NCBI GenBank assembly: GCA_017993505.1
Contig: JAGOMP010000001.1
Span: 53,059 to 117,058 of the forward strand
Length of the DNA stretch: 64,000 nucleotides
From: Planctomycetota bacterium
GTDB taxonomy: Bacteria; Planctomycetota; Uabimicrobiia; Uabimicrobiales; JABWCH01
Direction of reading: 5' to 3'
Below, piece by piece: positions 7,849-33,365 of this stretch (its first letter is position 1; every line of letters begins with the position of its first letter). Made by a program: the position numbers and the translations under genes. The notes beneath the pieces are model-generated. The model was given only the letters and a program-made list of their open reading frames with translations, made no database searches and was not told where the DNA came from.

Positions 7849-8504
7849 ACACCCCTCTTGAAAAATATAGTGAGCAAAAAAAAATTTTTCATTCATTCGT
7901 CAATTTCAAAAATACTCTTTTATTCATTGGTTAATCAATGAATAATTAATAAATAATTATTAAAAATAAAACATATTAAAAAAACTTTTAATAAAAAAAT
8001 CTTTTAAATTTTAAGATTTTTCAATTATTTATGATTGTATTTTTTTTCATGTTTCAGAATGATTTAGAATATTGTAAACAAAAAAAAATTTTTGTCAATC
8101 ATTTATTTAAACAAAAGATACAAGAGGATATTGTAAAAGGCAAGATAGTATTGAAAAAAGGCAAGAAATTATGGAAAGACAAAAAAAATGCAATAATTCA
8201 TTCGTTCAGAATTATTACTCTATTTATAGAAACCGTGCACCTTACATCGAACTCTCATTAGAAGGCATCTACATATATTTGACTAATGTTCAGCACTCCC
8301 TCACACATAAGCGAGGTTCCTACAGTTGCTCGGTTCCCCGCCTGGCTGGGTTTGGAAGCTTCTTATTGTAAAGGACCAAACACTTCAAGCACCAAATATA
8401 TAAGAAAATCCTAAAAACGAAAAGATCTTCTTAAAGCTTCAACCCCACTATAGCGAGTTGTGGGTTACAAGACACCGCTACTGCCCCGTTTAGCACGGTA
8501 TTAT

Positions 8505-8591
8505 CGGAGAGAGAGGGATTCGAACCCTCGAGACGATTACTCGCCTACGCGCTTTCCAAGCGCGCGCCCTCAGCCTCTAGGCGATCTCTCC
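8505..8591 (-). tRNA. tRNA-Ser (anticodon GGA), long variable arm, CCA not encoded
   Basis: Reverse complement folds as acceptor GGAGAGA/TCTCTCC, anticodon stem CGCGC/GCGCG, loop TTGGAAA (U33, GGA, A37), an 18-nt variable arm and T-arm GAGGG-TTCGAAT-CCCTC. Confidence 0.85.
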
Positions 8592-14382: not shown

Positions 14383-17300
14383 CTATTCCTTCTTTTGATT
14401 GATTTCATTTAAAATATCATTTTGATTTAAAATTTTAATTCCAAGTTGTCTTGCTTTCTCTGCTTTACTTCCTGGATTGTCACCCACAAGCACATAATCT
14501 GTCTTCTTGCTAACACTTTCCACAATTTGTACACCTAGTTTACGCAACACTTCATACATTTGTAAACGAGTAAAATTTGGCAAAGTACCAGTTACAACAA
14601 CTTTTTTATTCATTAAAAATGTATTTGTTTGTGGTGTAGAATATTCTTTACTTTGCATACAAAGTCCAACGTCTTGCAATGATTCAATAATTTTGATACC
14701 ATAATCACTATGAAAAAATTGATAAATATTTTTAGCAAGTTGACCTTGATTAGATATAATATAGCTTAATTCTTCTACATCTGCTTGCTGTAATGCCTCT
14801 ATGTTATCATAGTATGTTAAGACTTTTTGTAATAAAGAATCTAATTCTGATGTTTCTTTAGAATAAAAATCTTGTATAATCATACTGTGCAATTTTTCTT
14901 TATCTTGTTCTTTCGGTATTTGAAAATTTTCATTATGAAAATAATTGAATATTTTTTGTGCTTTCTCACGTGTTACTTTAGAAATGGCCACTTTTTTTAC
15001 AGATTCTGTCATTTCTTGCATCAGCTCTTTTATTGTTGCATTTTTTAAATTTTCTATATTTTTAAATCTATTTGCTAATTTTAATGCATATTCTTTTCCA
15101 ATATTTGGAATAGAAAGAGCACATAGTACATGGTGAAATTCTCGATTTTTACTTTTTTCAATAGATTCCAACAATTTATTGGCTTTTTTTTCTGCAAAGA
15201 ATTCTAATTGTAGTAAATCTTGCTTTTGCAACTTATAAATATCAGCAAACGTTTTGACAAAGTTCTTTGCAATCAATTGTTCAATCACACTTTTGCCCAT
15301 ATTTTCAATATTCATAGCTTGTCGAGAAACAAAATATTCTAATTTTGCTTGAAAACTACCTAAACATTCAGGATTTGGACAATATAATCTTTCTTTTTCC
15401 AATATTTCTAATATTTCTGTAACAATCAAAGCACCACACATCGGACAATTGGTAGGTGGCTGCACCATGACTGCATTTTTAGGACGCTTTTGTAGTTGGA
15501 CTTGAATAACTTGTGGAATGATATCTCCTGCTTTAATCACAGTCACTGTATCGCCAATACAAACACCTTCTGGGAACTTGTTCTTATCTTTTAAATACGA
15601 ATAATTATGCAATGTTGCTCGTTTCACAGTAGTGTCATCTAAAAAAACTGGTTCTAAATTTGCAACAGGAGTAAGTGTTCCCAATTTTCCTACTTGTACA
15701 GACACGCTTTGTAAAATAGTATCTGCTTGTTCTGGTTGAAATTTATAGGCTTTAACCCATTTTGGTGCATGTGAAGTAGCTCCCATTTGTATTTGTAACT
15801 GAAGTTGATTCAATTTAAATACAAGCCCATCAATAGGAAAAGGTGCGTAATGTTTTTTCTGAAGTCTTGTTGCTGAACGTTTTTCCTCTTCCTGTATACC
15901 GATTTTGTACATATCTTCTGCAGTTTTTACTATCCATCTATTTTTATTCACTGGCAAAGACCATTCTTCAAATATTTTCAACATTTCATCATGTGTAGAG
16001 GTAAAAGAAGAAAACCCAATAGAATGTACTAAAAATCCCAATGCAAGAGAAGGAGTAGGAACGCATTCTTGTTGTAAATGCTCTGCAAGATCTTGTTCTT
16101 CCAAAAACAACTCTTTTTCCATTTGTTGTTCTATATAGACATCTCCAATAACTTCTAAAATCGAAGGAACGTTTTTTTTGTTCAATTTTTTAGGAATACT
16201 TATAATTTTTTCTAAATGTGAAAATAAATGAGTAGAATCTTGTTTATTATCTGAATTAAAAAAAGCCTTTGTGAACACTCCATGTTCATAGATAATTTTT
16301 ACAGAACAACCTTTAATTTTTGGAATTATACAAAAATCTAAAAATTTTTCTGCATGTATAGTAGCAGGAACTTGATTGGAAATTTCCTGTTTTCTCTTGT
16401 CTAAAAATTCATTCAAATTTGATTCTGTAATTTCAGAACGATATAAAACATAAGGAGTACGCCATTCATCATTTTCATAAACAAAATCAAATGCATTTTT
16501 TTTATCTTCTTTTTTTGTTTTCCATTGAAAATGATTCCATTGGATGCGAATTCCTTCTAGTACAAACGGAAAATTTTCTTCATTCCAATGTTTCCAAATA
16601 TTTAAGATATCGCTACTAGAAGTAGCATATTCTATAGTAGATTTAGAAACAATTCCCCACAAATGCAATTTATTCCATATTTCTTCATAGGAAACAGCAA
16701 AACAAGAAAAGCCAATAGAATGAGCAAAATACGATAAATTACGATATCGAACTACTTCCAAGTCTAAAAGTTTTAACGTTCCTGTTGCTGTATTTCTAGG
16801 ATTGGCAAATAGTTTTTCATTTTTTTCTTCTAATTCTTTATTCAATGCATCAAATGTTTCATATGTCATATATACTTCGCCACGAATTTCCAAAATCGGA
16901 GGAATATTCTTACCCTGCAATTGTAAAGGCAAACTTTGAATCATCTTTACTTGTTCTGTGATCACTTCCCCAATTTGCCCATTGCCTCGAGTCACAGCCT
17001 TATGATATTTTCCATGAATATACCAAACACTTACTGCTGAACCATCAATTTTTTGTTCTACTACAAAATCAATATTTTCTTCTTGTGCCTTTTCTATAAT
17101 ATCAGATTCAAACTTTTTCAAATCTGTCAAAGTATGTTGCAATGGTGCTGGTTGACCAAAATCAGAAAAAATATTCTCAATAGACAACATGGGTACAAAA
17201 TGCTTTTGTTTTTTCAAATTTGATGTAGGTTGCGGTGCAACACGATTTGTAGGCGAATCATCCTTTTTATATTGTGGATACTTACTTTCTAAATTCTCCA

Positions 17301-17664
17301 ATCGTTTATATAATGTATCGTACTCAAAATCAGAAATTTCACTCACAGCTTCATTATAATACTTATCTTGATAATAAAGAATTTTTTGATAGAGCTGTTC
17401 CATTTCTTCTTCAGGTGACAACTCTTCTTCTGAAATATCCAACTGTTCCATTTCTTCTTCAAGTATTAACTCTTCTTGTCCAAATTGTTCTATTTCCTCT
17501 TCTGGCACAGAATTTTCTTGTACAAGCTGGTTTTCTTTAGATGCCAACTCTGTTTCTTGTACAAGCTGGTTTTCTTCTGGAATATCAAGACCATCCAAAA
17601 GAGAATCACTGTTTTTTAATGAAGATTTTTTTTTCTTATTCTGTTTTTTTTCTTTTTGCGACAT
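14383..17664 (-). CDS. ligA: NAD-dependent DNA ligase LigA, unusually long (1093 aa), with an acidic N-terminal extension and a large internal insertion
   Basis: Ia domain (YY..DKYYN...ISDFEYD), KxDG (VVEQKIDGSAV), HFVPMLSIEN, motif V-like DGLVFK...APKWVKAYKF, OB fold, Zn finger CPMCG...CPNPEC, HhH and a C-terminal BRCT (KKVVVTGTL...VLVGDNPGSK). Confidence 0.9.
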   Translation of the reverse strand: MSQKEKKQNKKKKSSLKNSDSLLDGLDIPEENQLVQETELASKENQLVQENSVPEEEIEQFGQEELILEEEMEQLDISEEELSPEEEMEQLYQKILYYQDKYYNEAVSEISDFEYDTLYKRLENLESKYPQYKKDDSPTNRVAPQPTSNLKKQKHFVPMLSIENIFSDFGQPAPLQHTLTDLKKFESDIIEKAQEENIDFVVEQKIDGSAVSVWYIHGKYHKAVTRGNGQIGEVITEQVKMIQSLPLQLQGKNIPPILEIRGEVYMTYETFDALNKELEEKNEKLFANPRNTATGTLKLLDLEVVRYRNLSYFAHSIGFSCFAVSYEEIWNKLHLWGIVSKSTIEYATSSSDILNIWKHWNEENFPFVLEGIRIQWNHFQWKTKKEDKKNAFDFVYENDEWRTPYVLYRSEITESNLNEFLDKRKQEISNQVPATIHAEKFLDFCIIPKIKGCSVKIIYEHGVFTKAFFNSDNKQDSTHLFSHLEKIISIPKKLNKKNVPSILEVIGDVYIEQQMEKELFLEEQDLAEHLQQECVPTPSLALGFLVHSIGFSSFTSTHDEMLKIFEEWSLPVNKNRWIVKTAEDMYKIGIQEEEKRSATRLQKKHYAPFPIDGLVFKLNQLQLQIQMGATSHAPKWVKAYKFQPEQADTILQSVSVQVGKLGTLTPVANLEPVFLDDTTVKRATLHNYSYLKDKNKFPEGVCIGDTVTVIKAGDIIPQVIQVQLQKRPKNAVMVQPPTNCPMCGALIVTEILEILEKERLYCPNPECLGSFQAKLEYFVSRQAMNIENMGKSVIEQLIAKNFVKTFADIYKLQKQDLLQLEFFAEKKANKLLESIEKSKNREFHHVLCALSIPNIGKEYALKLANRFKNIENLKNATIKELMQEMTESVKKVAISKVTREKAQKIFNYFHNENFQIPKEQDKEKLHSMIIQDFYSKETSELDSLLQKVLTYYDNIEALQQADVEELSYIISNQGQLAKNIYQFFHSDYGIKIIESLQDVGLCMQSKEYSTPQTNTFLMNKKVVVTGTLPNFTRLQMYEVLRKLGVQIVESVSKKTDYVLVGDNPGSKAEKARQLGIKILNQNDILNEINQKKE

Positions 17665-21621: not shown

Positions 21622-23625
21622 ATGCCCACAAGTTCAAATATGGGATTTGAAAATATCTCTTTTAGTTCTGACTCACAATATAGAGTAGTTCAAGAACTAG
21701 CAAGAGGAGGTATGGGAATTATTTTTCTTGCTGAAAAATATACTAGTGGAATTGCTGACTCTGTAGTTTTAAAAACATTACGCTCGATTAATGATGAAGA
21801 AGAACAGAAATTTAAAGAAGAAGCAGAAATTGCAACGTTTTTACGACATGAAAATATAGTAAAAACATATGGAATGGAACAAGTCGTCTATTCGGAACTT
21901 CCGGTTTATTTCCAAAATTTAATCTGTGAAAATACTAACGATTTTCCTTTGAATATCCAATCACATTCTTTGGATAACAAAAAAAAAGAGAACGAAAATA
22001 AATCTTTACTCATATTAGTTATGGATTATGTCAAAGGCACTGATCTATTCGCATTATTTACAGAGCATGTAAGTAAAAATTTATTAATTCCGATTCCTTT
22101 AATTGCATTTATTATTTCTAGAATTGCTACAGCTTTAGCGTATGCTCATACATATATTGTTCATCGTGATATTTCTCCAGAAAATATTTTAATTAGTGAA
22201 CAGGGAGTTTGTAAATTAACAGATTTTGGAATTTCTGTAGTTGCCAACAAACAGCCAAATTATTGGGCTGGAAAGTTATCTTATATGTCTCCTGAGCAAC
22301 TTAAAAACAAAAAAATTGATGAGCGTGCAGATATTTATTCATTAGGTGTCGTTGCATTTCAAATGTTAACTGGTATTCCCCTTTTGTTTGCTTCTTCTAA
22401 ATTATCTTTTGAAGAACAAGTATCCATCATTGAAAAACAAATGGATAGTAGCGTTGTATTACCTCATTTAATCAGAAATGACATTCCTGTTATATTATCT
22501 CGCATTGTAGCTAAAATGCTTTCTCCGATACCAGAATATCGTTACCAAAGAGCTTCAGCAGTAGCTAATGATTTAGAAAAAGAATATTTATATGCTCATG
22601 GTTTTGGTCCTTCCAATAGCAGTTTATCTGCTTATATCGATCTTTTCCAATCTAATTTTCTAGAATATTCTGAAGAAGATATTGACCAACTTTCTTTTTT
22701 AAAAGATGATCGAAGCATTCTTCAATTACGACGCCCATTAAAGTTAGAAGATTTTTCTAAAATTGGTGAAAGAATGTTAGAGGAACGTAAAGAATGCGTA
22801 TATCTTTCGCAACTTCAAAAATTTCATCGCGTACCATTCATCTCTATTGAACCTACAAGAAAAGCCTTATTAAAAATAAAATACATAAATAATGTCATAG
22901 AAGTTTTTGAACTGAGTAATAAAACAGTAAGGATTGGTCGAGGATTAAAAAATAATATTATATTACAAGAAAAAACTATATCTAAAAATCATGCTGTTGT
23001 TTATCCTGCACAAATGGGTTATTATGTGGAAGATATGAATAGCAAATACGGAACATATTTAAATGGATATAAAATTCATAAATTTTTACTCAAAGAAGGA
23101 GATAAAATTCAAATTGGATCGTATTTAATATATTTTCTTTGGGAACAAAAAAAGACACAAAACCCACCTAATTTTTTATTAGAAAATTTTTCTTGTACAA
23201 AATATACGATTCTAGAAAATTTTACAGTAGAATTTTACCCCAAGGAGAAAAATTTAGAAAAAATCAGTAGTATTACAGATATATTTCTAGAAAACACACC
23301 CTTAGGTAATATGAAAAAATCTATTATAGGACAGGCAATTAATGAATCCTTGAGTTTCTTTTATAGCAATTGCGAAGAAGATACAAGAATAACATTTTTG
23401 TATTTCAAAAGTTCAAAATATATGTACGTTAAATTTCAAATTCCTGAAGTTGACTCAAGATATGAACGATTTCTCTATTTTATCCAAAATCGCAATATAG
23501 AAATTGAACAAAAGAATTTCACTCTTAATGTAGATCAATTAGCTATTTCACTTATTTTAAAGGTTTTTGATAGAATTGAAATATTTCATACTACAAAAGA
23601 AATTGAATTGAGAATTTTTTTCTAG
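21622..23625 (+). CDS. Ser/Thr protein kinase with C-terminal FHA domain
   Basis: GGMGIIFLAEK, VHRDISPENILI, DFGIS and SPEQ kinase motifs; FHA-like RIGRG...NHAVV...YYVEDMNSKYGTYLNG near residue 440-500. Confidence 0.8.
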   Translation: MPTSSNMGFENISFSSDSQYRVVQELARGGMGIIFLAEKYTSGIADSVVLKTLRSINDEEEQKFKEEAEIATFLRHENIVKTYGMEQVVYSELPVYFQNLICENTNDFPLNIQSHSLDNKKKENENKSLLILVMDYVKGTDLFALFTEHVSKNLLIPIPLIAFIISRIATALAYAHTYIVHRDISPENILISEQGVCKLTDFGISVVANKQPNYWAGKLSYMSPEQLKNKKIDERADIYSLGVVAFQMLTGIPLLFASSKLSFEEQVSIIEKQMDSSVVLPHLIRNDIPVILSRIVAKMLSPIPEYRYQRASAVANDLEKEYLYAHGFGPSNSSLSAYIDLFQSNFLEYSEEDIDQLSFLKDDRSILQLRRPLKLEDFSKIGERMLEERKECVYLSQLQKFHRVPFISIEPTRKALLKIKYINNVIEVFELSNKTVRIGRGLKNNIILQEKTISKNHAVVYPAQMGYYVEDMNSKYGTYLNGYKIHKFLLKEGDKIQIGSYLIYFLWEQKKTQNPPNFLLENFSCTKYTILENFTVEFYPKEKNLEKISSITDIFLENTPLGNMKKSIIGQAINESLSFFYSNCEEDTRITFLYFKSSKYMYVKFQIPEVDSRYERFLYFIQNRNIEIEQKNFTLNVDQLAISLILKVFDRIEIFHTTKEIELRIFF

Positions 23626-24447: not shown

Positions 24448-26256
24448 ATGAAATATATTCATTTCATTTATATCCTTTTCTTTCTATGTATTTTTACAAA
24501 TACAATGATACATAGTCAGGAAACGATGACAGATGCTGTTTTAAAATCATGGAAAACTATTCCAAAACATTCCGGATTACATGACTCGATAGCAGTAGAT
24601 ACAGCTAATATTTGGCTGGCTGTACTCAATTCAAATAATACTGTAGATATATATCTTCAAAACACAGGAGAAATTTGGAAACAAATTTCTATTCCAGCAT
24701 CTTCTACATTACAAATGTCTTGTGTTTGTTTTTCTCTAGATGGCAAATATATTTTAACTGGAACTTACACTGGAGAAATTTTAGTTTGGTCTTTACCAGA
24801 ATTACAACTTTTCAAAAAATTGGAAGGTCATACAAAAGTCATTCAATCCCTCCAATTCAGTCTTTCTGGTAAAATAATGGCAAGTGCTGGAGCAGATGCT
24901 AATATCATACTATGGACACTGCCAGATTTTACATTATTTCGCAAATTAGTTGGACATCATGACGAAGTAAAATATATTGAATTTTCAAAAAATGGGAAAC
25001 TCCTTTATAGTATTAGCAATGATAATACTATAAAATTTTGGCAAATAAACGAAAATGAAATATTTAATCGTCCTGTGTTAAAAGAAAAAGTCACAGAAAA
25101 ACCAACAGATATCCTTTATAAAGAAGCACGCCTAGCAAGAGTACAAGGTCAATTACAAAATGCTATGGCATTGTGTAAAGAAGTTTTACAAAGAGATCCT
25201 CTACATGCCGATACATTATATTTAATGGCAACTATTTATTATATGCAAAGTGAATCTGAGCCAAATAAAGATGAACAATATAAATTAGTCACTCTTACAT
25301 TAGAACATTTAAATAAATCATTTGAAAATGGTTTTACAGAATGGGCTAAATTTCAATTAGACCCAACATTCATAAAATTGCAAAAAGATATTCGCTTCCA
25401 AGATATTTTATCTCGGTACAAAGATAAATTTCCAGAAAAAGAGACAGAAGCTGTGGTACATGTACCACAAGAATTGGCATACTCTGAAGATTCTATCATT
25501 GCTCAACAAGAGAGTACAGGAGCTTCTAAGCCCATTTCATTTATCATTCAAGAAGAAAATGGTCTCTTAGAGGCAACAGCTATTGAAATTATGGTCAATG
25601 GGAAAGTGATTGAAATTAACGATAAATTTTTCCCTGGTTACAATTATGATATGATTATCAAATTCAAAGATTATGCTACAGTAAAGAAGAAAGTATACTT
25701 ACAAAATACAGGTGCAGAAACATTTACAATCCAAGCAAAATTTGATAAATTAAAAATATGCGAGTTTTTCACAAGAGATAAAGAAACCAATCTAGATGGT
25801 CTTATATATCCTTATAAATTTTATGTTGATGATATAGAAATTGAGGATCATTTAATTGAATATTATAAAAAAGGAGTGTTTTACTATTACACAATTCGAG
25901 TACCTTTAGACGCTAGTAAGTTTCGCGTATTGTCAGGTTATCTATATGAAGATCGCTATTTAGGTGAATTAAAAGACGGAATCACACGCTTAGAACGTCT
26001 AAGTGTTCCTTTACTCATGAAACATTTAGAACTATTAGCAAAAACAAGCAACTCAGGGTATAGAGTTTCTATTGTTGCCCTAGAAAAACTTGTAAAAAGT
26101 CGATATTGGAGCAACAAATTAAAATATGCACCTACTCAAGAAATTGGTGATTTTCTCATGCAACTAGAAACTTGGAATGTTATAAACGAACAAGATATTG
26201 AACGAGTTCGAATGATCGTTGATGCCATTGAAAGTCTAGTGGGTGGGTATTACTAA
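24448..26256 (+). CDS. secreted WD40-repeat plus TPR-like protein
   Basis: Signal peptide; WD40 units (LTGTYTGEILVWSL, ASAGADANIILWTL, SISNDNTIKFWQI) followed by TPR-like helices. Confidence 0.65.
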   Translation: MKYIHFIYILFFLCIFTNTMIHSQETMTDAVLKSWKTIPKHSGLHDSIAVDTANIWLAVLNSNNTVDIYLQNTGEIWKQISIPASSTLQMSCVCFSLDGKYILTGTYTGEILVWSLPELQLFKKLEGHTKVIQSLQFSLSGKIMASAGADANIILWTLPDFTLFRKLVGHHDEVKYIEFSKNGKLLYSISNDNTIKFWQINENEIFNRPVLKEKVTEKPTDILYKEARLARVQGQLQNAMALCKEVLQRDPLHADTLYLMATIYYMQSESEPNKDEQYKLVTLTLEHLNKSFENGFTEWAKFQLDPTFIKLQKDIRFQDILSRYKDKFPEKETEAVVHVPQELAYSEDSIIAQQESTGASKPISFIIQEENGLLEATAIEIMVNGKVIEINDKFFPGYNYDMIIKFKDYATVKKKVYLQNTGAETFTIQAKFDKLKICEFFTRDKETNLDGLIYPYKFYVDDIEIEDHLIEYYKKGVFYYYTIRVPLDASKFRVLSGYLYEDRYLGELKDGITRLERLSVPLLMKHLELLAKTSNSGYRVSIVALEKLVKSRYWSNKLKYAPTQEIGDFLMQLETWNVINEQDIERVRMIVDAIESLVGGYY

Positions 26257-26322: not shown

Positions 26323-26853
26323 ATGGCTCAAAAATGCACATTATGCAAAAAAACAGTGAATAAAGTTTATTTAGAGATTTGCTATAATTGTGAAAAAAAA
26401 ATGTGCCGTGATTGTTTAAAAACTTGTGTAGTTTGCAATAATACATTTTGCAAAAATTGTATCGATTATTGTGAAGTATGCAAAGAACCTGTTTGTCCTG
26501 ATTGTGAAATTGTAATAGAAGACGATACTTGCTCTATCACTTTATGTGAAGAATGTCACGAAGACTCTAAAGACCAAGACTTCAATAAATCAAAACCATC
26601 TTCCCAAAAAACAAAAAACCATCAAGAAGATGAAGATGACGATCTTCATTACAACAGGAATGATGACGACGATAATAATGATGAAGATGACAATAATATA
26701 GATTACAATAACGAAGAAGATGTCGAAGAAGATGAAGATGACGATTATGATGATGACTACGACAACGATGACGATTATGATGATCAGTATAATCATCATT
26801 ATGACGATGACGACTATGATAATTATGGATATGGTCACCGAGATGATGATTGA
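26323..26853 (+). CDS. Cys-rich (8x CxxC, zinc-ribbon-like) protein with a poly-acidic D/N/E/Y-rich C-terminal tail
   Basis: CTLC, CYNC, CRDC, CVVC, CKNC, CEVC, CPDC, CEEC, then about 90 residues of D/N/E/Y low complexity. Confidence 0.55.
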   Translation: MAQKCTLCKKTVNKVYLEICYNCEKKMCRDCLKTCVVCNNTFCKNCIDYCEVCKEPVCPDCEIVIEDDTCSITLCEECHEDSKDQDFNKSKPSSQKTKNHQEDEDDDLHYNRNDDDDNNDEDDNNIDYNNEEDVEEDEDDDYDDDYDNDDDYDDQYNHHYDDDDYDNYGYGHRDDD

Positions 26854-28531: not shown

Positions 28532-28593
28532 AAAAAATTGCAAACACTTTGAATTTTTTCACGTAAAAAGTAATATGATATAAAGTTAATCTT

Positions 28594-29169
28594 ATGAAAA
28601 ACTTGAACGACGATGATTTAATTCGATTTTCTCAATTGGGCGACATGAATGCTTTTCAAACTTTAGTAGAAAAATACCAAAATCGTGCCATTTGGATTGC
28701 AGAAAAAATTTTAGGCAACTATGAGGAGGCACGAGATATTTCTCAAGAAGCTTTTATTCGTGTTTATCGTGCTCTCGATACTTATAAATTAGGTAGCAAT
28801 TTCTATAAATGGCTATATAGAATAATTAGCAATTTATGTATTGATTTTTTACGGAAACAAAAAAGACAAAAAAAAACGATCAATGTCGAAGAAACCGACG
28901 AATTGCAGGCTTCTGATATCTCAGTCCAAGAATATTTTGAAAAAAAAGAACTAGAAGAAGAACTTCAAATGGTTTTACAAAAAATTCCCGATACATATAG
29001 AATGATTCTTGTGCTTCGTGATTTAGAAGGTTTTTCTTGTAAAGAAATTGAAGAAATTCTAGATTGTAATTACAATACAGTTCGATGGCGGCTTTTTCGA
29101 GCAAGACAAATTTTTAAAGATTTATGGGAAAAAAAACAGATGAAAAAAAATTCTAACTTGAATGAATAA
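28594..29169 (+). CDS. ECF-family RNA polymerase sigma factor
   Basis: Region 2 (FQTLVEKYQNRAIWIAEKILGNYEEARDISQEAFIRVYRAL) and region 4 (LVLRDLEGFSCKEIEEIL). Confidence 0.8.
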   Translation: MKNLNDDDLIRFSQLGDMNAFQTLVEKYQNRAIWIAEKILGNYEEARDISQEAFIRVYRALDTYKLGSNFYKWLYRIISNLCIDFLRKQKRQKKTINVEETDELQASDISVQEYFEKKELEEELQMVLQKIPDTYRMILVLRDLEGFSCKEIEEILDCNYNTVRWRLFRARQIFKDLWEKKQMKKNSNLNE

Positions 29170-29349
29170 TTCAGTTAGAACATAAATCATATAATTAGCA
29201 TTCACTAATCCATTGCTTGTTATAAAATAAGCATTCACCATTTGATAAATCAAATGGGAAAATTTCACAAACTGCTTTTGTACAACGACAACCGTCAAAA
29301 TACATGTACCAATTTGTGAAGAAGTTCATTAGCAGTTAAGGATAATAAA

Positions 29350-29940
29350 ATGAAATGTTGGATAATACAAAAACTCATACCAATGTACATCGATGAACAC
29401 CATGATATCTTGCATAATGCCATGGAACATCATTGCAAACATTGTATCAAATGCCAGCAAATATACTCAAAATATAAAAATATACAAAATATACTACATT
29501 CATTCCAAACAAAAGAAGTGCCTCAACATGTTACCAACAATTATTGGAATGATTTAGCAATAAAAATCAACCAACTTCCCAAACCAGAACAACAAACTAT
29601 ACCATCCTATAGCTTATTTTGGCAACCAATATTAGGGTTTGCAATCATACTATTCGTATTCTTTATAGGATATTTAGTAGAAGCAAGAGTATCTCTAAAG
29701 ACAAATACACTACAACCTATTCAAACTATTAAACAAAATAATATCTCGAACAATTCTAAACCATATGTCCAAAAAAAGACATATAATCTTCATAGTATTC
29801 CAGTTGCTCATCATATACTAGATACAGAAAAAGATAATGATCACAATAATATTAGAAAATTTAATCAACGAATTATAGAAACAATAGATTGTCAATTAGA
29901 CCAAGTAGAATTAGTTCAAATAGAGCATGCTTCATTTTAA
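29350..29940 (+). CDS. ZAS-type (HxxxCxxC) transmembrane anti-sigma factor
   Basis: HHCKHCIKC near the N-terminus, a single TM (ILGFAIILFVFFIGYLV), and genomic coupling to the ECF sigma. Confidence 0.55.
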   Translation: MKCWIIQKLIPMYIDEHHDILHNAMEHHCKHCIKCQQIYSKYKNIQNILHSFQTKEVPQHVTNNYWNDLAIKINQLPKPEQQTIPSYSLFWQPILGFAIILFVFFIGYLVEARVSLKTNTLQPIQTIKQNNISNNSKPYVQKKTYNLHSIPVAHHILDTEKDNDHNNIRKFNQRIIETIDCQLDQVELVQIEHASF

Positions 29941-29950
29941 AGGAATTTTA

Positions 29951-31057
29951 ATGGTCGAAATAAAAAAAATAGTTATCCTATTCTTCTATTGTAGCATTGT
30001 TTCTGTTATTGAGTCACAATTTCTACAACAACTTGAGAATGATATTATAAATATTATTGCCAATATCCAACACAATGTTGTAAAACTAGAATTATTTTAT
30101 CCTCATACAAATACAAGAATTAGTTCTGGAATTATTTTAGATAACCAAGGTCATATTGTCACACTTGCCACTGCCGTAGAAAAAACAAATAAAATAAAAG
30201 TTCATTTACAATCAGATAAAACAACAGAAGCCGATATTATAGGTACGGATACTTGGACTAATGTAGCAGTTCTTAAAATGAAGGAACACATAGAACCTAT
30301 ACCAAAAGGAGATTCAGATAAGCTTCAAATTGGTTCTATTTTAATAGTCATAGGGAATCCATATGGATTAAATAAATCTGTTTCTTTAGGAATTGTGAGT
30401 GGATTGCATCGTTGCGTCTGGCTTAGAGGATCCTTAACACCTTTAATTGGTCTTATTCAAACTACAGCTCCCATTAATCCAGGAGATGATGGAGGACTTG
30501 TTGTAAATTCTCAAGGAGAATTTATCGGCATGTCATTTTCCACAATACAAAGAGAATTATTTGTAGGCACACAAAAAAAACTTTTTTTTAAAATGTATAA
30601 ACTTCTTAAGTCATATCAAGAACAAACAGATTTTGACCCACAACTTGCATTACAATTTGATACTCTTATTCAAGAAATGCAACCTGGTATAAACTCTTCC
30701 AATATAGTTTCTCAAGGCATTAATTTTATATTGCCTAGCAATCGCATTTACTGGGTATCTGAATCTATTATACGATATGGTACAGTGAACCGAGGATGGC
30801 TCGGAATTACAGTTGTAAATATGGAGCAACCTGGAGTTCTTGTTTCGAAAGTCAACCTCAACAGTCCTGCTTACAACATATTACAAGAAGGCGATCAAAT
30901 CATTACATTAAATGACACTTTGATTATGAATTCTGCACACATTTATGAAATAATATCCTACTGTTATGCAGACGTTCCCATTACCATTACCTATCAAAGA
31001 AACAATCAACTTCATAAAGTAACACTACGATTAGCATTACATCCTTCTAGAAATTAG
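29951..31057 (+). CDS. HtrA/DegP-like trypsin-fold protein with PDZ domain; catalytic Ser apparently replaced (GDDGG in place of GNSGG)
   Basis: Trypsin-like fold motifs (GHIVTLATAV, TDTWTNVAVLKM, IGNPYGLNKSVSLGIVSGL) and PDZ (GWLGITVVNMEQPGVLVSKV...GDQIITLND). Confidence 0.65.
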   Translation: MVEIKKIVILFFYCSIVSVIESQFLQQLENDIINIIANIQHNVVKLELFYPHTNTRISSGIILDNQGHIVTLATAVEKTNKIKVHLQSDKTTEADIIGTDTWTNVAVLKMKEHIEPIPKGDSDKLQIGSILIVIGNPYGLNKSVSLGIVSGLHRCVWLRGSLTPLIGLIQTTAPINPGDDGGLVVNSQGEFIGMSFSTIQRELFVGTQKKLFFKMYKLLKSYQEQTDFDPQLALQFDTLIQEMQPGINSSNIVSQGINFILPSNRIYWVSESIIRYGTVNRGWLGITVVNMEQPGVLVSKVNLNSPAYNILQEGDQIITLNDTLIMNSAHIYEIISYCYADVPITITYQRNNQLHKVTLRLALHPSRN

Positions 31058-31256
31058 TATTTTAGAATCTTTCCATTGGACGAACTCTCGTCCAATATTT
31101 TTAACAACTTACAAATATCGTTGCTAACTCGCAAATTTACAAACCTATGAATCATTAAAAAAATACAATGCATCATGCAAAAAAAAATAGAAAAAGCAAG
31201 TTGATTTTTTAAAAATGTGTGTTATATTCAAATATAAGAAATTTTAATTAACAAGG

Positions 31257-32696
31257 ATGTTGTATAAAAAAAGCATAAAAAATAAATATTTAAAGGTAAT
31301 TAAAATGTTTTTTGGACAACTTATGCTGTTGGAATGGATCGAATATTTTATCGTTTCCTTCATAATCTTATTTGTATTAATTGTAATTTGGTTTTATAAA
31401 CGTAGCAGTTTAGACAAAGCATTGATTCGTACAGGCTTTGGAAGCGTAAAAGTCTGTACAGAAGGTGGTATGATTGTTTTCCCTCTTTTACATAAACTCT
31501 ACCAAATTTCTTTAAAGCCATTTCCACTTTCTTTGGAAATCACTCCAGAACAAAATATCAGAACAATTGATCAGCAGAGAGTTGTTCTTGCCTTAAATAT
31601 GTTTTTAAAAATTTCTAATATTAAAAACAATTTAAAAAAAATTGCACCTTATATTCAAGATAGTCCTGATGAATGGGATTATTTAAAAAAAATGATTTCT
31701 TACAAATTAGAAGAATCTTTAAAATATTGCATAGCTATCAAACGCAGTGAGGATTTACTCACACAACAAAATATTCTATTGGCAGATATTAAAAATTTAT
31801 TTGCTAAGAAAATTTTTGATTTAGGTATTAGCATAGAAGAAATTTCATTTCTTTCCTTTAAAATATTACCTGAAAAATCTTTTTGGGATGAACCCATTGC
31901 ACTCATTCAATCAAAACTTGATTCTTTTATGGAAGAATGTAAAAAAAATTACTTTTTCTTGCATGACAGAATAGACAAGCAAGGTAAACATCATGATGAA
32001 CGATTTTACACTTTAAAAGCAGAATGTAAAGAGACGATGCAACAGCAATGCTATCATTCAGAACAACAAATAAAATCACTTCAAATAGAATATAAAAAAA
32101 TCATAGAACAACAATCTCTGGATATAGAAAAACAAATCAAAACATTACGTCAAGAATGTCAAGAAATGATTTCTAAACAGATAAAAGATACAGAAGAACA
32201 ACTTCAATTTTTTACTTTAGAATCTCAAACACATATCGAACAGCAATGTCAACAAATTCAAGAAGAAAATAAAATTCTATATAAACAAAATGCAAATTTC
32301 ATAGAAGAACACTATAAAACCATACAACAAAAATACCAAGCATTACAAGAAGAATGGAATATAGCAAATCAACAATCTACCCTACTACAAAAACAACTTC
32401 TTACACAGCAACAAGAATTTTCAATAGCATATCAAAATAAAATTGAAGAACATATCAAAAATATGCAAGGAAATTTAGAATCATATAAAACACATTTACA
32501 CAATCACGTTAAACAACTCAATGAAATTCAAATAGAAAAAATTGCAGGCATTGTTAAAGATATACAGAATCAAAATCAAGAATTAGTTCAAGAAGTAACA
32601 GCACAAATGCAATCTAGAAATAAAGCAACATATCCAGTGCCAGAAATTCATTTAAACGATATTTTAAAATTTACAGGTTTTCAAAAAAATCCGTAA
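31257..32696 (+). CDS. flotillin-like SPFH-domain membrane protein with a long Q/E/K-rich coiled coil
   Basis: N-terminal TM then LIRTGFGSVKVCTEGGMIVFPLLHKLYQISL (flotillin/YqiK-like), followed by about 280 aa of heptad-rich sequence. Start possibly at 31305. Confidence 0.55.
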   Translation: MLYKKSIKNKYLKVIKMFFGQLMLLEWIEYFIVSFIILFVLIVIWFYKRSSLDKALIRTGFGSVKVCTEGGMIVFPLLHKLYQISLKPFPLSLEITPEQNIRTIDQQRVVLALNMFLKISNIKNNLKKIAPYIQDSPDEWDYLKKMISYKLEESLKYCIAIKRSEDLLTQQNILLADIKNLFAKKIFDLGISIEEISFLSFKILPEKSFWDEPIALIQSKLDSFMEECKKNYFFLHDRIDKQGKHHDERFYTLKAECKETMQQQCYHSEQQIKSLQIEYKKIIEQQSLDIEKQIKTLRQECQEMISKQIKDTEEQLQFFTLESQTHIEQQCQQIQEENKILYKQNANFIEEHYKTIQQKYQALQEEWNIANQQSTLLQKQLLTQQQEFSIAYQNKIEEHIKNMQGNLESYKTHLHNHVKQLNEIQIEKIAGIVKDIQNQNQELVQEVTAQMQSRNKATYPVPEIHLNDILKFTGFQKNP

Positions 32697-32798: not shown

Positions 32799-33365
32799 AT
32801 GTATAGAAAAAAAGGTTTTACAACTGGTGACGTTGCAGAATTGTGTCATGTAACAATTCCAACTGTCATTAAGTGGATTGAATCTGAAGAATTAGAAGGA
32901 TTTAAAATTCCTGGTTCAAAAAATAGAAGAATCACGCGAGAAAGTCTTCTTAAATTTATGAAAAAATATAAAATACCTACCAACGCTCTTGAAAAAACAA
33001 AATTCAAAGTTCTCATCGTAGATACAGAACCAGAGCATCTTGATGAAATTCTGGACAAAGAGAAATATGAGACTCGAATTGTTACACGTGGTTTTGAAGC
33101 TGGTCTTGCAAAAGAATTTAAACCAGATCTCGTTCTTCTCAATCTTGATTTACCAGATATTGATGGTCTTCAAGTATATCATTTCTTACGCAATATTGAT
33201 GAAATTAAAAATTGCTTTATTATTGGTCTCACAAAAGAAGAACCAGAAGAAAATCTTTTCAAGCAAGGTTTTGATGATCATATTAAAATTCCTTTCTCAG
33301 ATGAAAGTCTTCTTGAAAAAATCAGAAAACACCTTACAAAAACTAACCGTCGAAAGAAAAAATAA
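32799..33365 (+). CDS. response regulator with N-terminal excisionase-type HTH and C-terminal receiver domain
   Basis: GDVAELCHVTIPTVIKWIE (HTH_17/MerR-like). REC features: VLIVDTEPE, LNLDLPDIDG (phospho-Asp), GLTKEE and KIPF. Confidence 0.65.
   Translation: MYRKKGFTTGDVAELCHVTIPTVIKWIESEELEGFKIPGSKNRRITRESLLKFMKKYKIPTNALEKTKFKVLIVDTEPEHLDEILDKEKYETRIVTRGFEAGLAKEFKPDLVLLNLDLPDIDGLQVYHFLRNIDEIKNCFIIGLTKEEPEENLFKQGFDDHIKIPFSDESLLEKIRKHLTKTNRRKKK

Follow-up and report, generated by a model that had tools for sequence, protein, structure and literature searches.

A conserved planctomycete sigma/anti-sigma cassette with a triad-less HtrA-family pseudoprotease, a putative non-cutting sensor or guard

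Extracytoplasmic function (ECF) sigma factors, their anti-sigma factors and HtrA-family proteases together form a textbook system for trans-envelope stress signalling via regulated proteolysis, which raises the question of what an HtrA-family protein would do in such a system if it could not cut. The question is posed by a stretch of 64,000 nucleotides of planctomycete DNA (contig JAGOMP010000001.1; the whole stretch is called the window here, and its G+C content is ~30%), in which an ECF sigma gene, a zinc-type anti-sigma gene and a gene for an HtrA-family protein with a PDZ domain follow one another between positions 28594 and 31057. The HtrA-family protein, called the pseudo-HtrA below, is predicted to be unable to cut because none of its three catalytic residues (His, Asp, Ser) has been kept. 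It is probably a non-cutting sensor or guard of the membrane anti-sigma factor.

The module and its triad-less HtrA

An earlier note on this DNA had described an ECF sigma, zinc anti-sigma and HtrA-PDZ module, and the three forward-strand open reading frames (ORFs) and their domain matches bear this out. The first gene (28594-29169, forward strand) encodes a sigma factor of 191 aa that matches Sigma70_r2 (E=5e-19), Sigma70_r4_2 (E=1e-13) and Sigma70_ECF in Pfam and reaches 116.7 bits against a cut-off of 42.9 for TIGR02937. It has sigma2 and sigma4 domains only and scores above the TIGR02937 cut-off, as is characteristic of group 4 (ECF) sigma factors; the SigW and RpoE models are nearest to it in NCBIfam, where all equivalog cut-offs are missed.

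The second gene (29350-29940, forward strand) encodes a single-pass protein of 196 aa of the class I zinc-binding anti-sigma (ZAS) type. Its HHCKHCIKC sequence contains the zinc-anti-sigma motif H28-x3-C32-x2-C35 (29431-29454), which is present in 12/12 anti-sigma factors tabulated, and Cys3 (codon 29356-29358), also an invariant alignment column, is a putative fourth zinc ligand. The four residues C3, H28, C32 and C35 make up a putative ligand set of the form C-x24-H-x3-C-x2-C, and very few other columns are invariant, namely some helix residues and the last residue, Phe196. In an AlphaFold2 (AF2) model, residues 1-75 are helical with predicted local distance difference test (pLDDT) values of 75-95, a transmembrane helix spans residues 86-117 and the last ~80 residues have pLDDT <50. 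The topology predicted from the model is a cytoplasmic helical domain (residues ~1-75), one transmembrane helix and a periplasmic tail of ~80 aa. The HxxxCxxC motif that had been noticed in a membrane anti-sigma factor is thus confirmed, with its ligands invariant in relatives and with one transmembrane helix. Assignment to class I rests on HxxxCxxC and an upstream Cys in an N-terminal helical domain, together with an adjacent ECF sigma gene in 13/13 loci. Relatives P0124-P0128 match zf-HC2 (PF13490), and one orthologue is labelled 'anti-sigma factor RsiW' by JGI. A sigma factor held by a zinc-type anti-sigma factor is what the gene pair predicts.

The third gene is the pseudo-HtrA gene (29927-31057, forward strand, as the longest ORF of 376 aa). 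This ORF overlaps the anti-sigma stop codon, as had been noted, but the overlap is true of the longest ORF only, since the start is probably ATG 29951, which lies 11 nt past that stop. The N-termini of homologues align at this ATG and give a protein of 368 aa, an AAGGA ribosome-binding site lies 7 nt 5' of it, and the NCBI gene models of the window's pseudo-HtrA also have 368 aa. At the N-terminus of all family members a conserved (G/S)Q comes after a hydrophobic stretch of ~14 residues, which suggests that the protein is exported. The operon is closed by a terminator-like element on the same strand (31075-31106), in which a hairpin 3' of the pseudo-HtrA stop codon (31075-31096; 9-bp stem with 4 GC pairs) is followed by ATTTTT.

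The HtrA fold of the third protein is well supported. Pfam matches residues 67-202 to Trypsin_2 (E=3e-20) and residues 291-368 to PDZ_2 (E=1e-9), the latter as a single PDZ domain (30788-31030) with a carboxylate-binding loop R289-G-W-L-G293-I in which R289 and G293 are invariant. A phmmer search of the PDB matches the protein to Legionella DegQ (E about 1e-31). The earlier note had called for a structural model, and the AF2 model (mean pLDDT 91.2, predicted template modelling (TM) score, pTM, 0.83) is a confident HtrA fold: its top Foldseek matches are DegQ, DegP and DegS (E about 1e-27, TM-score about 0.65), within a range of about 1e-27 to 1e-23 over DegQ, DegP, DegS, AlgW, MucD and the HtrA of Mycobacterium tuberculosis.

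The catalytic positions can be read residue by residue from the phmmer alignment with DegQ, and the three replacements recur in multiple alignments that include intact relatives. INPGDDGG of the pseudo-HtrA falls on INPGNSGG of DegQ, so that GDDGG is the catalytic-loop position (GNSGG in active relatives) and the nucleophile is replaced by Asp188 (codon 30488-30490), just as had been proposed. The two other catalytic residues had been thought to be retained within GHIVTLATAV and TNVAVLK, and this did not hold. IVTLATAV aligns with IITNDHVI, so that Thr82 (codon 30170-30172; TLATAV against TN(D/A)HV(I/V)) occupies the His position, and the His of 'GHIV' lies five residues upstream of that position. 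DTWTNVAVLK aligns with DSETDLAVLK, with Asn112 (codon 30260-30262; TNVAVL against (S/T)D(L/I)AVL) at the Asp position. A further departure from active HtrAs is found at the L2 position, which comes after the strand that follows the nucleophile loop and before the final strands of the barrel; here ~56 extra residues (30545-30712) stand against 3-11 in active HtrAs; the AF2 model folds them as a hairpin of two helices (210-232 and 238-251), and the length in the family is 54-66 aa, except in P0018/L010 (7-15).

The protein therefore has the chymotrypsin-fold protease domain and PDZ domain of MEROPS subfamily S1C and lacks its His-Asp-Ser triad (TNxHV, DxAxL, GNSGG). It also misses the curated NCBIfam cut-offs for the Do family (175 vs 416), DegS (121.8 vs 422.95), DegP (112 vs 720) and DegQ (110 vs 756), and the description 'DegS-like' was accordingly too specific. 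Because the catalytic test failed and every curated NCBIfam cut-off was missed, the pseudo-HtrA is best regarded, from its sequence, as a fold-level relative of the HtrA family and not as a functional member.

Conservation of the loss and its genomic context

A homologue search over 5.8 billion proteins returned 17 relatives at E <=5e-48 with 33-56% identity (most ~40%), all from metagenomes or metagenome-assembled genomes (MAGs), and a family alignment was built from the window's protein and 16 of these, the truncated P0017 being left out (n=17). No member of the alignment has kept the catalytic Ser, its place being taken by Asp (11), Ala (4), Val (1) or Gly (1). Conservation among orthologues, which the earlier note had asked to be checked for the Ser to Asp replacement, thus holds for loss of the Ser (17/17) and not for the Asp itself (11/17 only). 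The His position is occupied by S (6), N (5), R (3), T (1), K (1) or G (1), and the Asp position by Asn (15), Q (1) or Y (1). For comparison, the H-D-S triad is intact in 56/82 aligned sequences.

These counts bear directly on the proposal that the protein is still a protease, with Asp188 or another residue as nucleophile. In its favour, the protein retains the GDDGG loop together with the glycines of the oxyanion hole. Against it, the His and Asp positions are lost as well, and 6/17 sequences have A, V or G at residue 188. The family also has no conserved column for a replacement His or Ser: none of its invariant columns is a His, and the serines that are invariant (S151, S158, S195) are conserved or usual in active HtrAs too. 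With the nucleophile position variable (D/A/V/G) and the general base lost (T/R/S/N/K/G at the His position), a conserved alternative nucleophile, which the earlier note had allowed for, is excluded, and a protease of any other kind is highly improbable.

What the family has conserved lies elsewhere. The alignment has 45 invariant columns, which include the L1-loop region (I177-Q-T-T, I183-N-P-G-D and G189-G-L-V, within a family consensus I177-Q-T-T-x-P-I-N-P-G-D-x-G-G-L-V), a GNPYGL/GIVSG block and the PDZ residues R289 and G293. This pattern, with binding surfaces kept and catalytic positions drifting, points to purifying selection on a binding protein. It is also relevant to the suspicion that the gene is a decaying pseudogene or an artefact of MAG assembly or annotation, which could be raised for a sequence from an uncultured MAG and a family found only in metagenomes. 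Intact ORFs of the same length in independent NCBI, JGI, ENA and Logan assemblies, and ~40% identity with 45 invariant columns and conserved synteny, effectively refute this idea, which is hardly credible.

Loss of the triad appears to be a property of a lineage. A neighbour-joining tree calculated with the triad columns removed unites 24 degenerate sequences in a single clade that contains zero intact members. A full HMMER scan with the family profile over 1.84 billion cluster representatives found 9 core representatives >400 bits with a broad halo beneath; among the best 150 representatives, ~60 have degenerate triads, typically x-N-x, and ~35 of these ~60 have a long L2 insertion (50-107 aa). 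The sources are named 'Planctomycetota bacterium', 'Candidatus Brocadiia bacterium' and 'Planctomycetes bacterium'. Public databases label P0001 and its cluster as 'trypsin-like peptidase domain-containing protein', 'S1-C subfamily serine protease' or 'serine protease Do', and these protease labels are functionally misleading because the catalytic triad is absent.

The gene neighbourhood is conserved together with the protein. The order ECF sigma gene, gene for an HxxxCxxC protein of 170-300 aa and pseudo-HtrA gene occurs in 13/13 distinct loci (L001, L002, L004, L005, L006, L008, L009, L010, L167, L169, L171, L172 and the window), while flanking genes vary. As a control, every locus fetched by two collection scans was scored alike. 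A scan of metagenome contigs added one family locus, L087 (a duplicate of L008), and the remainder were intact HtrAs that served as the control set. A family sigma factor and an ORF with the ZAS pattern lie directly upstream in 18/18 family-type loci (duplicates included), against 2/146 intact-triad HtrA loci with such a sigma factor within 2.5 kb and 1/146 with a chance HxxxCxxC match. The linkage to the sigma factor is therefore specific to the dead clade, and the module pattern, which recurs in every orthologous locus examined, is far beyond chance. Judged from sequence comparison, the cassette appears to be a conserved, Planctomycetota-specific ECF envelope-signalling unit.

More distant degenerate HtrAs extend this picture. 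An anti-sigma gene with the ZAS pattern still lies upstream in L174, L175 and L031; the ECF sigma gene further upstream is confirmed in L174, is probably an uncharacterised 195-aa ORF in L175, and would lie beyond the end of the locus in L031. Two of these loci, L174 (4001-7069; pseudo-HtrA triad G-G-A) and L175 (1168-3918; triad N-K-A), have an intact H-D-S HtrA with two PDZ domains directly downstream. In L031 (1262-5891; triad G-N-A) an intact H-D-S HtrA follows two genes on, after a gene for a HEAT+PDZ protein, and is membrane-anchored with a single PDZ domain, in a DegS-like layout. The proximity of dead and live HtrAs in the three loci suggests that the pseudo-HtrA originated by tandem duplication of an operon-encoded HtrA, with a functional partnership between the dead and the live protein.

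Such a partnership could take the form of an adaptor or activator, in which the dead HtrA takes hold of the anti-sigma tail or of stress peptides and delivers it to the intact paralogue, or switches that paralogue on allosterically (possibly within mixed oligomers), thereby promoting site-1 cleavage. An intact HtrA that immediately follows the pseudo-HtrA or lies near it, as in L174, L175 and L031, fits tandem duplication followed by catalytic loss, conservation of the PDZ domain and the cleft applies equally to this model, and a precedent is available in MamO, whose presence but not its triad is required for MamE-dependent processing (PMC4794232). Against it, zero intact HtrAs are linked to the cassette in the window's own clade, and the intact neighbours in L174 and L175 have two PDZ domains, which makes mixed trimers less obvious. 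An adaptor of this kind and a guard that shields the tail are computationally indistinguishable; we regard the adaptor, the chief competitor of the guard, as unlikely.

The anti-sigma tail and a possible guard role

If the pseudo-HtrA does not cut, its PDZ domain and cleft could still bind, and the C-terminus of the anti-sigma factor is a candidate ligand. The anti-sigma factor of the window ends in DCQLDQVELVQIEHASF-COOH (29887-29937, forward strand), that is, in a box and a terminal aromatic residue (DCQLDQV-ELVQIEH-ASF). A terminal Phe is found in the 12/12 tabulated anti-sigma factors and in L172, hence in 13/13 distinct family loci, and also in P0125-P0127 and P0131. The low-GC clade has tails of the type -(A/V/T/L/S)SF, with one -IGF, and a box (E/D)(Y/F)xL(D/E/N)(Q/E)(V/A) at a fixed 10-11 residues before the terminal Phe; the high-GC clade (L006, L172, P0125-P0128) has -WDEF tails, and in the anti-sigma factor of L031 the box is likewise present, with -GY as the last two residues. 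The sequence between the transmembrane helix and the tail motif is essentially unalignable among relatives. PDZ domains of DegS and AlgW bind aromatic C-terminal peptides of unassembled outer-membrane proteins (OMPs) (PMC8103513, PMC8545111), and the aromatic anti-sigma C-terminus resembles, by analogy, the OMP tails bound by the DegS PDZ domain.

A natural negative case is provided by L173 (3190-5805), which shares the purL-accA-sigma-anti-sigma synteny of L006 and L172. It has neither the HtrA gene nor the aromatic tail: its anti-sigma factor ends in ...GYKGLK, and the next gene encodes an unrelated protein of 375 aa with no Pfam match. The possibility that this protein is a cryptic HtrA was rejected (hhalign probability 0.6%). 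The predicted alphaB helix of the PDZ domain also differs between the tail types, being Arg-rich (HPRxLRRAL) in the -WDEF clade and (D/N)SxxLLHxIS in the -xSF clade; this pattern is weakly compatible with charge matching between helix and tail, and it is confounded by genomic G+C.

Among the readings offered earlier, a PDZ sensor without proteolysis is the best supported. In the form that we prefer, the pseudo-HtrA would be a decoy or guard that binds the anti-sigma tail and is relieved by competing misfolded envelope proteins, a reading to which we assign a probability of about 0.45. The PDZ groove would hold the aromatic C-terminus (-ASF-COOH), akin to the YxF tails of OMPs sensed by DegS, and the LDQV box, which lies 10 residues upstream, may occupy the inactive cleft in the manner of a pseudo-substrate. 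The tail would thereby be kept from the real site-1 protease, presumably an intact HtrA, whose gene is a neighbour of the cassette in distant relatives and would lie at another place in the window's genome. When unassembled envelope proteins with aromatic C-termini accumulate, they would compete for the PDZ domain and free the anti-sigma tail, and regulated proteolysis would then release the sigma factor. In support of the guard, the terminal Phe and the box, at its fixed spacing, have been kept in a periplasmic region whose sequence is otherwise almost wholly divergent and which the AF2 model leaves disordered. A stricter version is more doubtful: a 'decoy protease' switch in which the OMP-like degron (-ASF) and the P1-Val box of the anti-sigma factor are both held by the dead HtrA, stress is sensed purely by competition, and the anti-sigma factor, its tail displaced, is then handed to an intact HtrA.

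The pseudo-HtrA may instead be an output of the regulon without direct contact with the anti-sigma factor, as a protease-dead periplasmic holdase chaperone or peptide sink that buffers misfolded envelope proteins and so exerts negative feedback in the manner of MucD minus degradation, with the terminal Phe read by another protein. HtrA genes are outputs or feedback elements in the algU-mucABCD and sigE-rseA-htrA-tatB operons, dual chaperone-protease activity is described for members of the HtrA family (PMC8671199, PMC12826053), and conservation of the cleft and the PDZ domain would suit a chaperone. However, this model leaves unexplained an aromatic tail that is present in 13 family loci and absent in L173, which has no HtrA gene, and a general chaperone would need no strict linkage to one anti-sigma family over ~60% sequence divergence. 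We consider such an output role rather improbable.

Several points weigh against the guard reading. The window's anti-sigma factor has no Pfam match, zf-HC2 included, and reaches only 14 bits (E=0.041) against a cut-off of 62.5 for RsrA in NCBIfam. No intact HtrA, RseP or Ctp was found among the ORFs of >=150 aa scanned in the 64-kb window. The loci L174 and L175 keep a pseudo-HtrA, yet their anti-sigma termini are non-aromatic, so that the tail is a trait of the inner clade that includes the window, and tail docking is not universal among degenerate HtrAs. The spacing from box to terminus is clade-dependent (10-11 vs ~31 residues). Other PDZ proteins are candidate readers of the tail as well, among them an intact HtrA, RseP or a protease of the Ctp/Prc type, and the data fit either direction of effect, that is, protection or delivery of the tail.

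Surroundings of the module and comparison with known systems

The sigma and anti-sigma genes are separated by 180 bp in the window (29170-29349) and by 50-320 bp across the family, with no translational coupling. Alignment of these spacers revealed no conservation, and an Rfam scan of the module gave no match. A hairpin is seen just past the sigma stop codon in several of the spacers compared (window, L001, L002, L009, L010), which in the window is CCATTTGAT..ATCAAATGG near 29227-29246, and TTAAGYGAGTAAGA stands directly 5' of the anti-sigma ATG in L004, L005, L009 and L167. By analogy with sigE and rseA of M. tuberculosis, spacer elements may allow differential expression of the two genes. 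An ECF-type promoter (AAC-N15-18-CGT/GTC) was sought 5' of the sigma genes and in the spacers, and nothing consistent was found. A sigma70-like TTTACA-N17-TATAAT lies 5' of the ECF sigma gene in most relatives (L004, L005, L008, L009, L010, L167, L171), and the candidate in the window is weaker (TTGAAT-N16-TAATAT, about 28549-28576).

Genes around the module vary. In several relatives the gene 3' of the pseudo-HtrA gene encodes a secreted protein (~350-440 aa) that combines HEAT-like repeats with a PDZ domain at its C-terminus (L006 6320-7384; L172 5841-6899; L010 5992-7026; L031 2849-4165). This gene is absent from the window, where two others come straight after the module instead. The first, past the terminator, encodes a membrane protein of the SPFH/Band-7 type that has a long coiled coil rich in Gln (31257-32696, forward strand), and the second a response regulator whose receiver domain is preceded, unusually, by an HTH_17 domain at the N-terminus (32799-33365, forward strand). 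Neither the SPFH gene nor the HTH_17-receiver gene is conserved beside the module in relatives. Upstream on the forward strand lie genes for a Ser/Thr kinase-FHA fusion (21622-23625) and a secreted protein of 602 aa that has WD40 repeats and, at the C-terminal end, a large region of no recognised type (24448-26256), both typical planctomycete signalling genes, and for a 176-aa protein with a CxxC-packed N-terminal half and an extremely acidic, low-complexity C-terminal half rich in Asp, Asn and Glu (26323-26853). The reverse strand carries a gene for an NAD-dependent DNA ligase, LigA, of 1093 aa against the typical ~670 aa (14383-17664), with the adenylation domain starting at residue 148 and the OB domain not until residue 649, so that large insertions are implied. 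The same strand encodes a bacterial large signal recognition particle (SRP) RNA (8233-8498; 124.5 bits in Rfam) with an adjoining tRNA gene (8505-8591).

Comparison with the best-known sigma/anti-sigma/HtrA systems shows which parts of the cassette are familiar. The RseA of Escherichia coli has no zinc-type motif, unlike the anti-sigma factor here, and the RseA of M. tuberculosis is zinc-type, cytoplasmic and soluble; we know of no conserved aromatic tail in the latter. The E. coli rpoE-rseA-rseB(-rseC) operon with DegS resembles the cassette in having an ECF sigma factor, a single-pass anti-sigma factor and, as third gene, one for a periplasmic anti-sigma binder, a role that would fall here to the pseudo-HtrA. 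In that operon the third gene product, RseB, binds RseA and shields it from DegS, and aromatic C-termini are read by an HtrA-family PDZ domain (PMC8103513). The systems differ in that the third gene here encodes an HtrA fold and not an RseB fold, in that the HtrA-like protein here is dead, and in that the aromatic C-terminus is on the anti-sigma factor itself and not on OMPs. The pseudo-HtrA matches Trypsin_2 and PDZ families only and no RseB/MucB family, and its likeness to RseB/MucB is positional and, we infer, functional only.

The order ECF sigma, anti-sigma and HtrA-family gene is shared with sigE and rseA-htrA-tatB of M. tuberculosis (PMC10027907), where rseA and htrA lie in one operon and the reason for their linkage has been called unclear (PMC10027907). 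The HtrA of that organism is an essential serine protease (PMC10027907; PMC6538288). Two differences are an HtrA that is active there and a tatB gene there that has no counterpart here. MucD, an HtrA/DegP homologue, is encoded in the algU sigma/anti-sigma operon of Pseudomonas aeruginosa (algU-mucA-mucB-mucC-mucD). As would be the case for the pseudo-HtrA, the PDZ domain of AlgW senses C-terminal peptides in that system (PMC8545111). The triads of MucD and AlgW are intact and MucB is the guard, whereas here a single dead HtrA stands in place of both MucB and MucD.

HtrA pseudoproteases also have precedents. MamO, which acts with MamE, has a degenerate or dispensable triad and a non-catalytic role and appears to have evolved beside an active paralogue, as in L174, L175 and L031; unlike the pseudo-HtrA, it binds transition metals through a di-His motif, serves biomineralization and has no sigma/anti-sigma link (PMC4794232). 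The pseudo-HtrA scores 39 bits against a cut-off of 800 for MamO in NCBIfam (NF040961), and no magnetosome genes were found among the scanned ORFs of the window. A MamO-like metal-binding role was considered and rejected, as the invariant columns of the family contain no conserved His pair. Plant DEG7 keeps catalysis-dead HtrA domains for protein-protein interaction (PMC3194040); in contrast to the present case it is eukaryotic, has dead and active domains in one polypeptide, and has a role in oligomerisation with no known signalling partner.

Clusters of sigma, anti-sigma and HtrA genes (algU-mucABCD; sigE and rseA-htrA-tatB of M. tuberculosis) and HtrA pseudoproteases (MamO, DEG7) are therefore already known. 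No account of a pseudo-HtrA coupled to an anti-sigma factor emerged from searches of the literature, and HtrA and PDZ go unmentioned in the main text of the paper that re-classified ECF sigma factors. To our knowledge, no case has been described in which the HtrA-family partner of an ECF sigma/anti-sigma/HtrA system is an obligate pseudoenzyme. The triad-less HtrAs tied to a sigma/anti-sigma pair make up a whole conserved clade and are not a one-off, a point that the earlier note had not seen, any more than the aromatic anti-sigma tail or the helical L2 insertion. The cassette may help to explain linkage between htrA and anti-sigma genes elsewhere, for example between rseA and htrA in M. tuberculosis (PMC10027907). 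If the decoy switch were true, the guard role of RseB and the PDZ peptide-sensor role of DegS would be merged in one pseudoenzyme, which would be the first HtrA pseudoprotease in signalling. The aromatic C-terminus of the anti-sigma factor offers a concrete hypothesis on how a pseudoprotease may sense or gate a signal.

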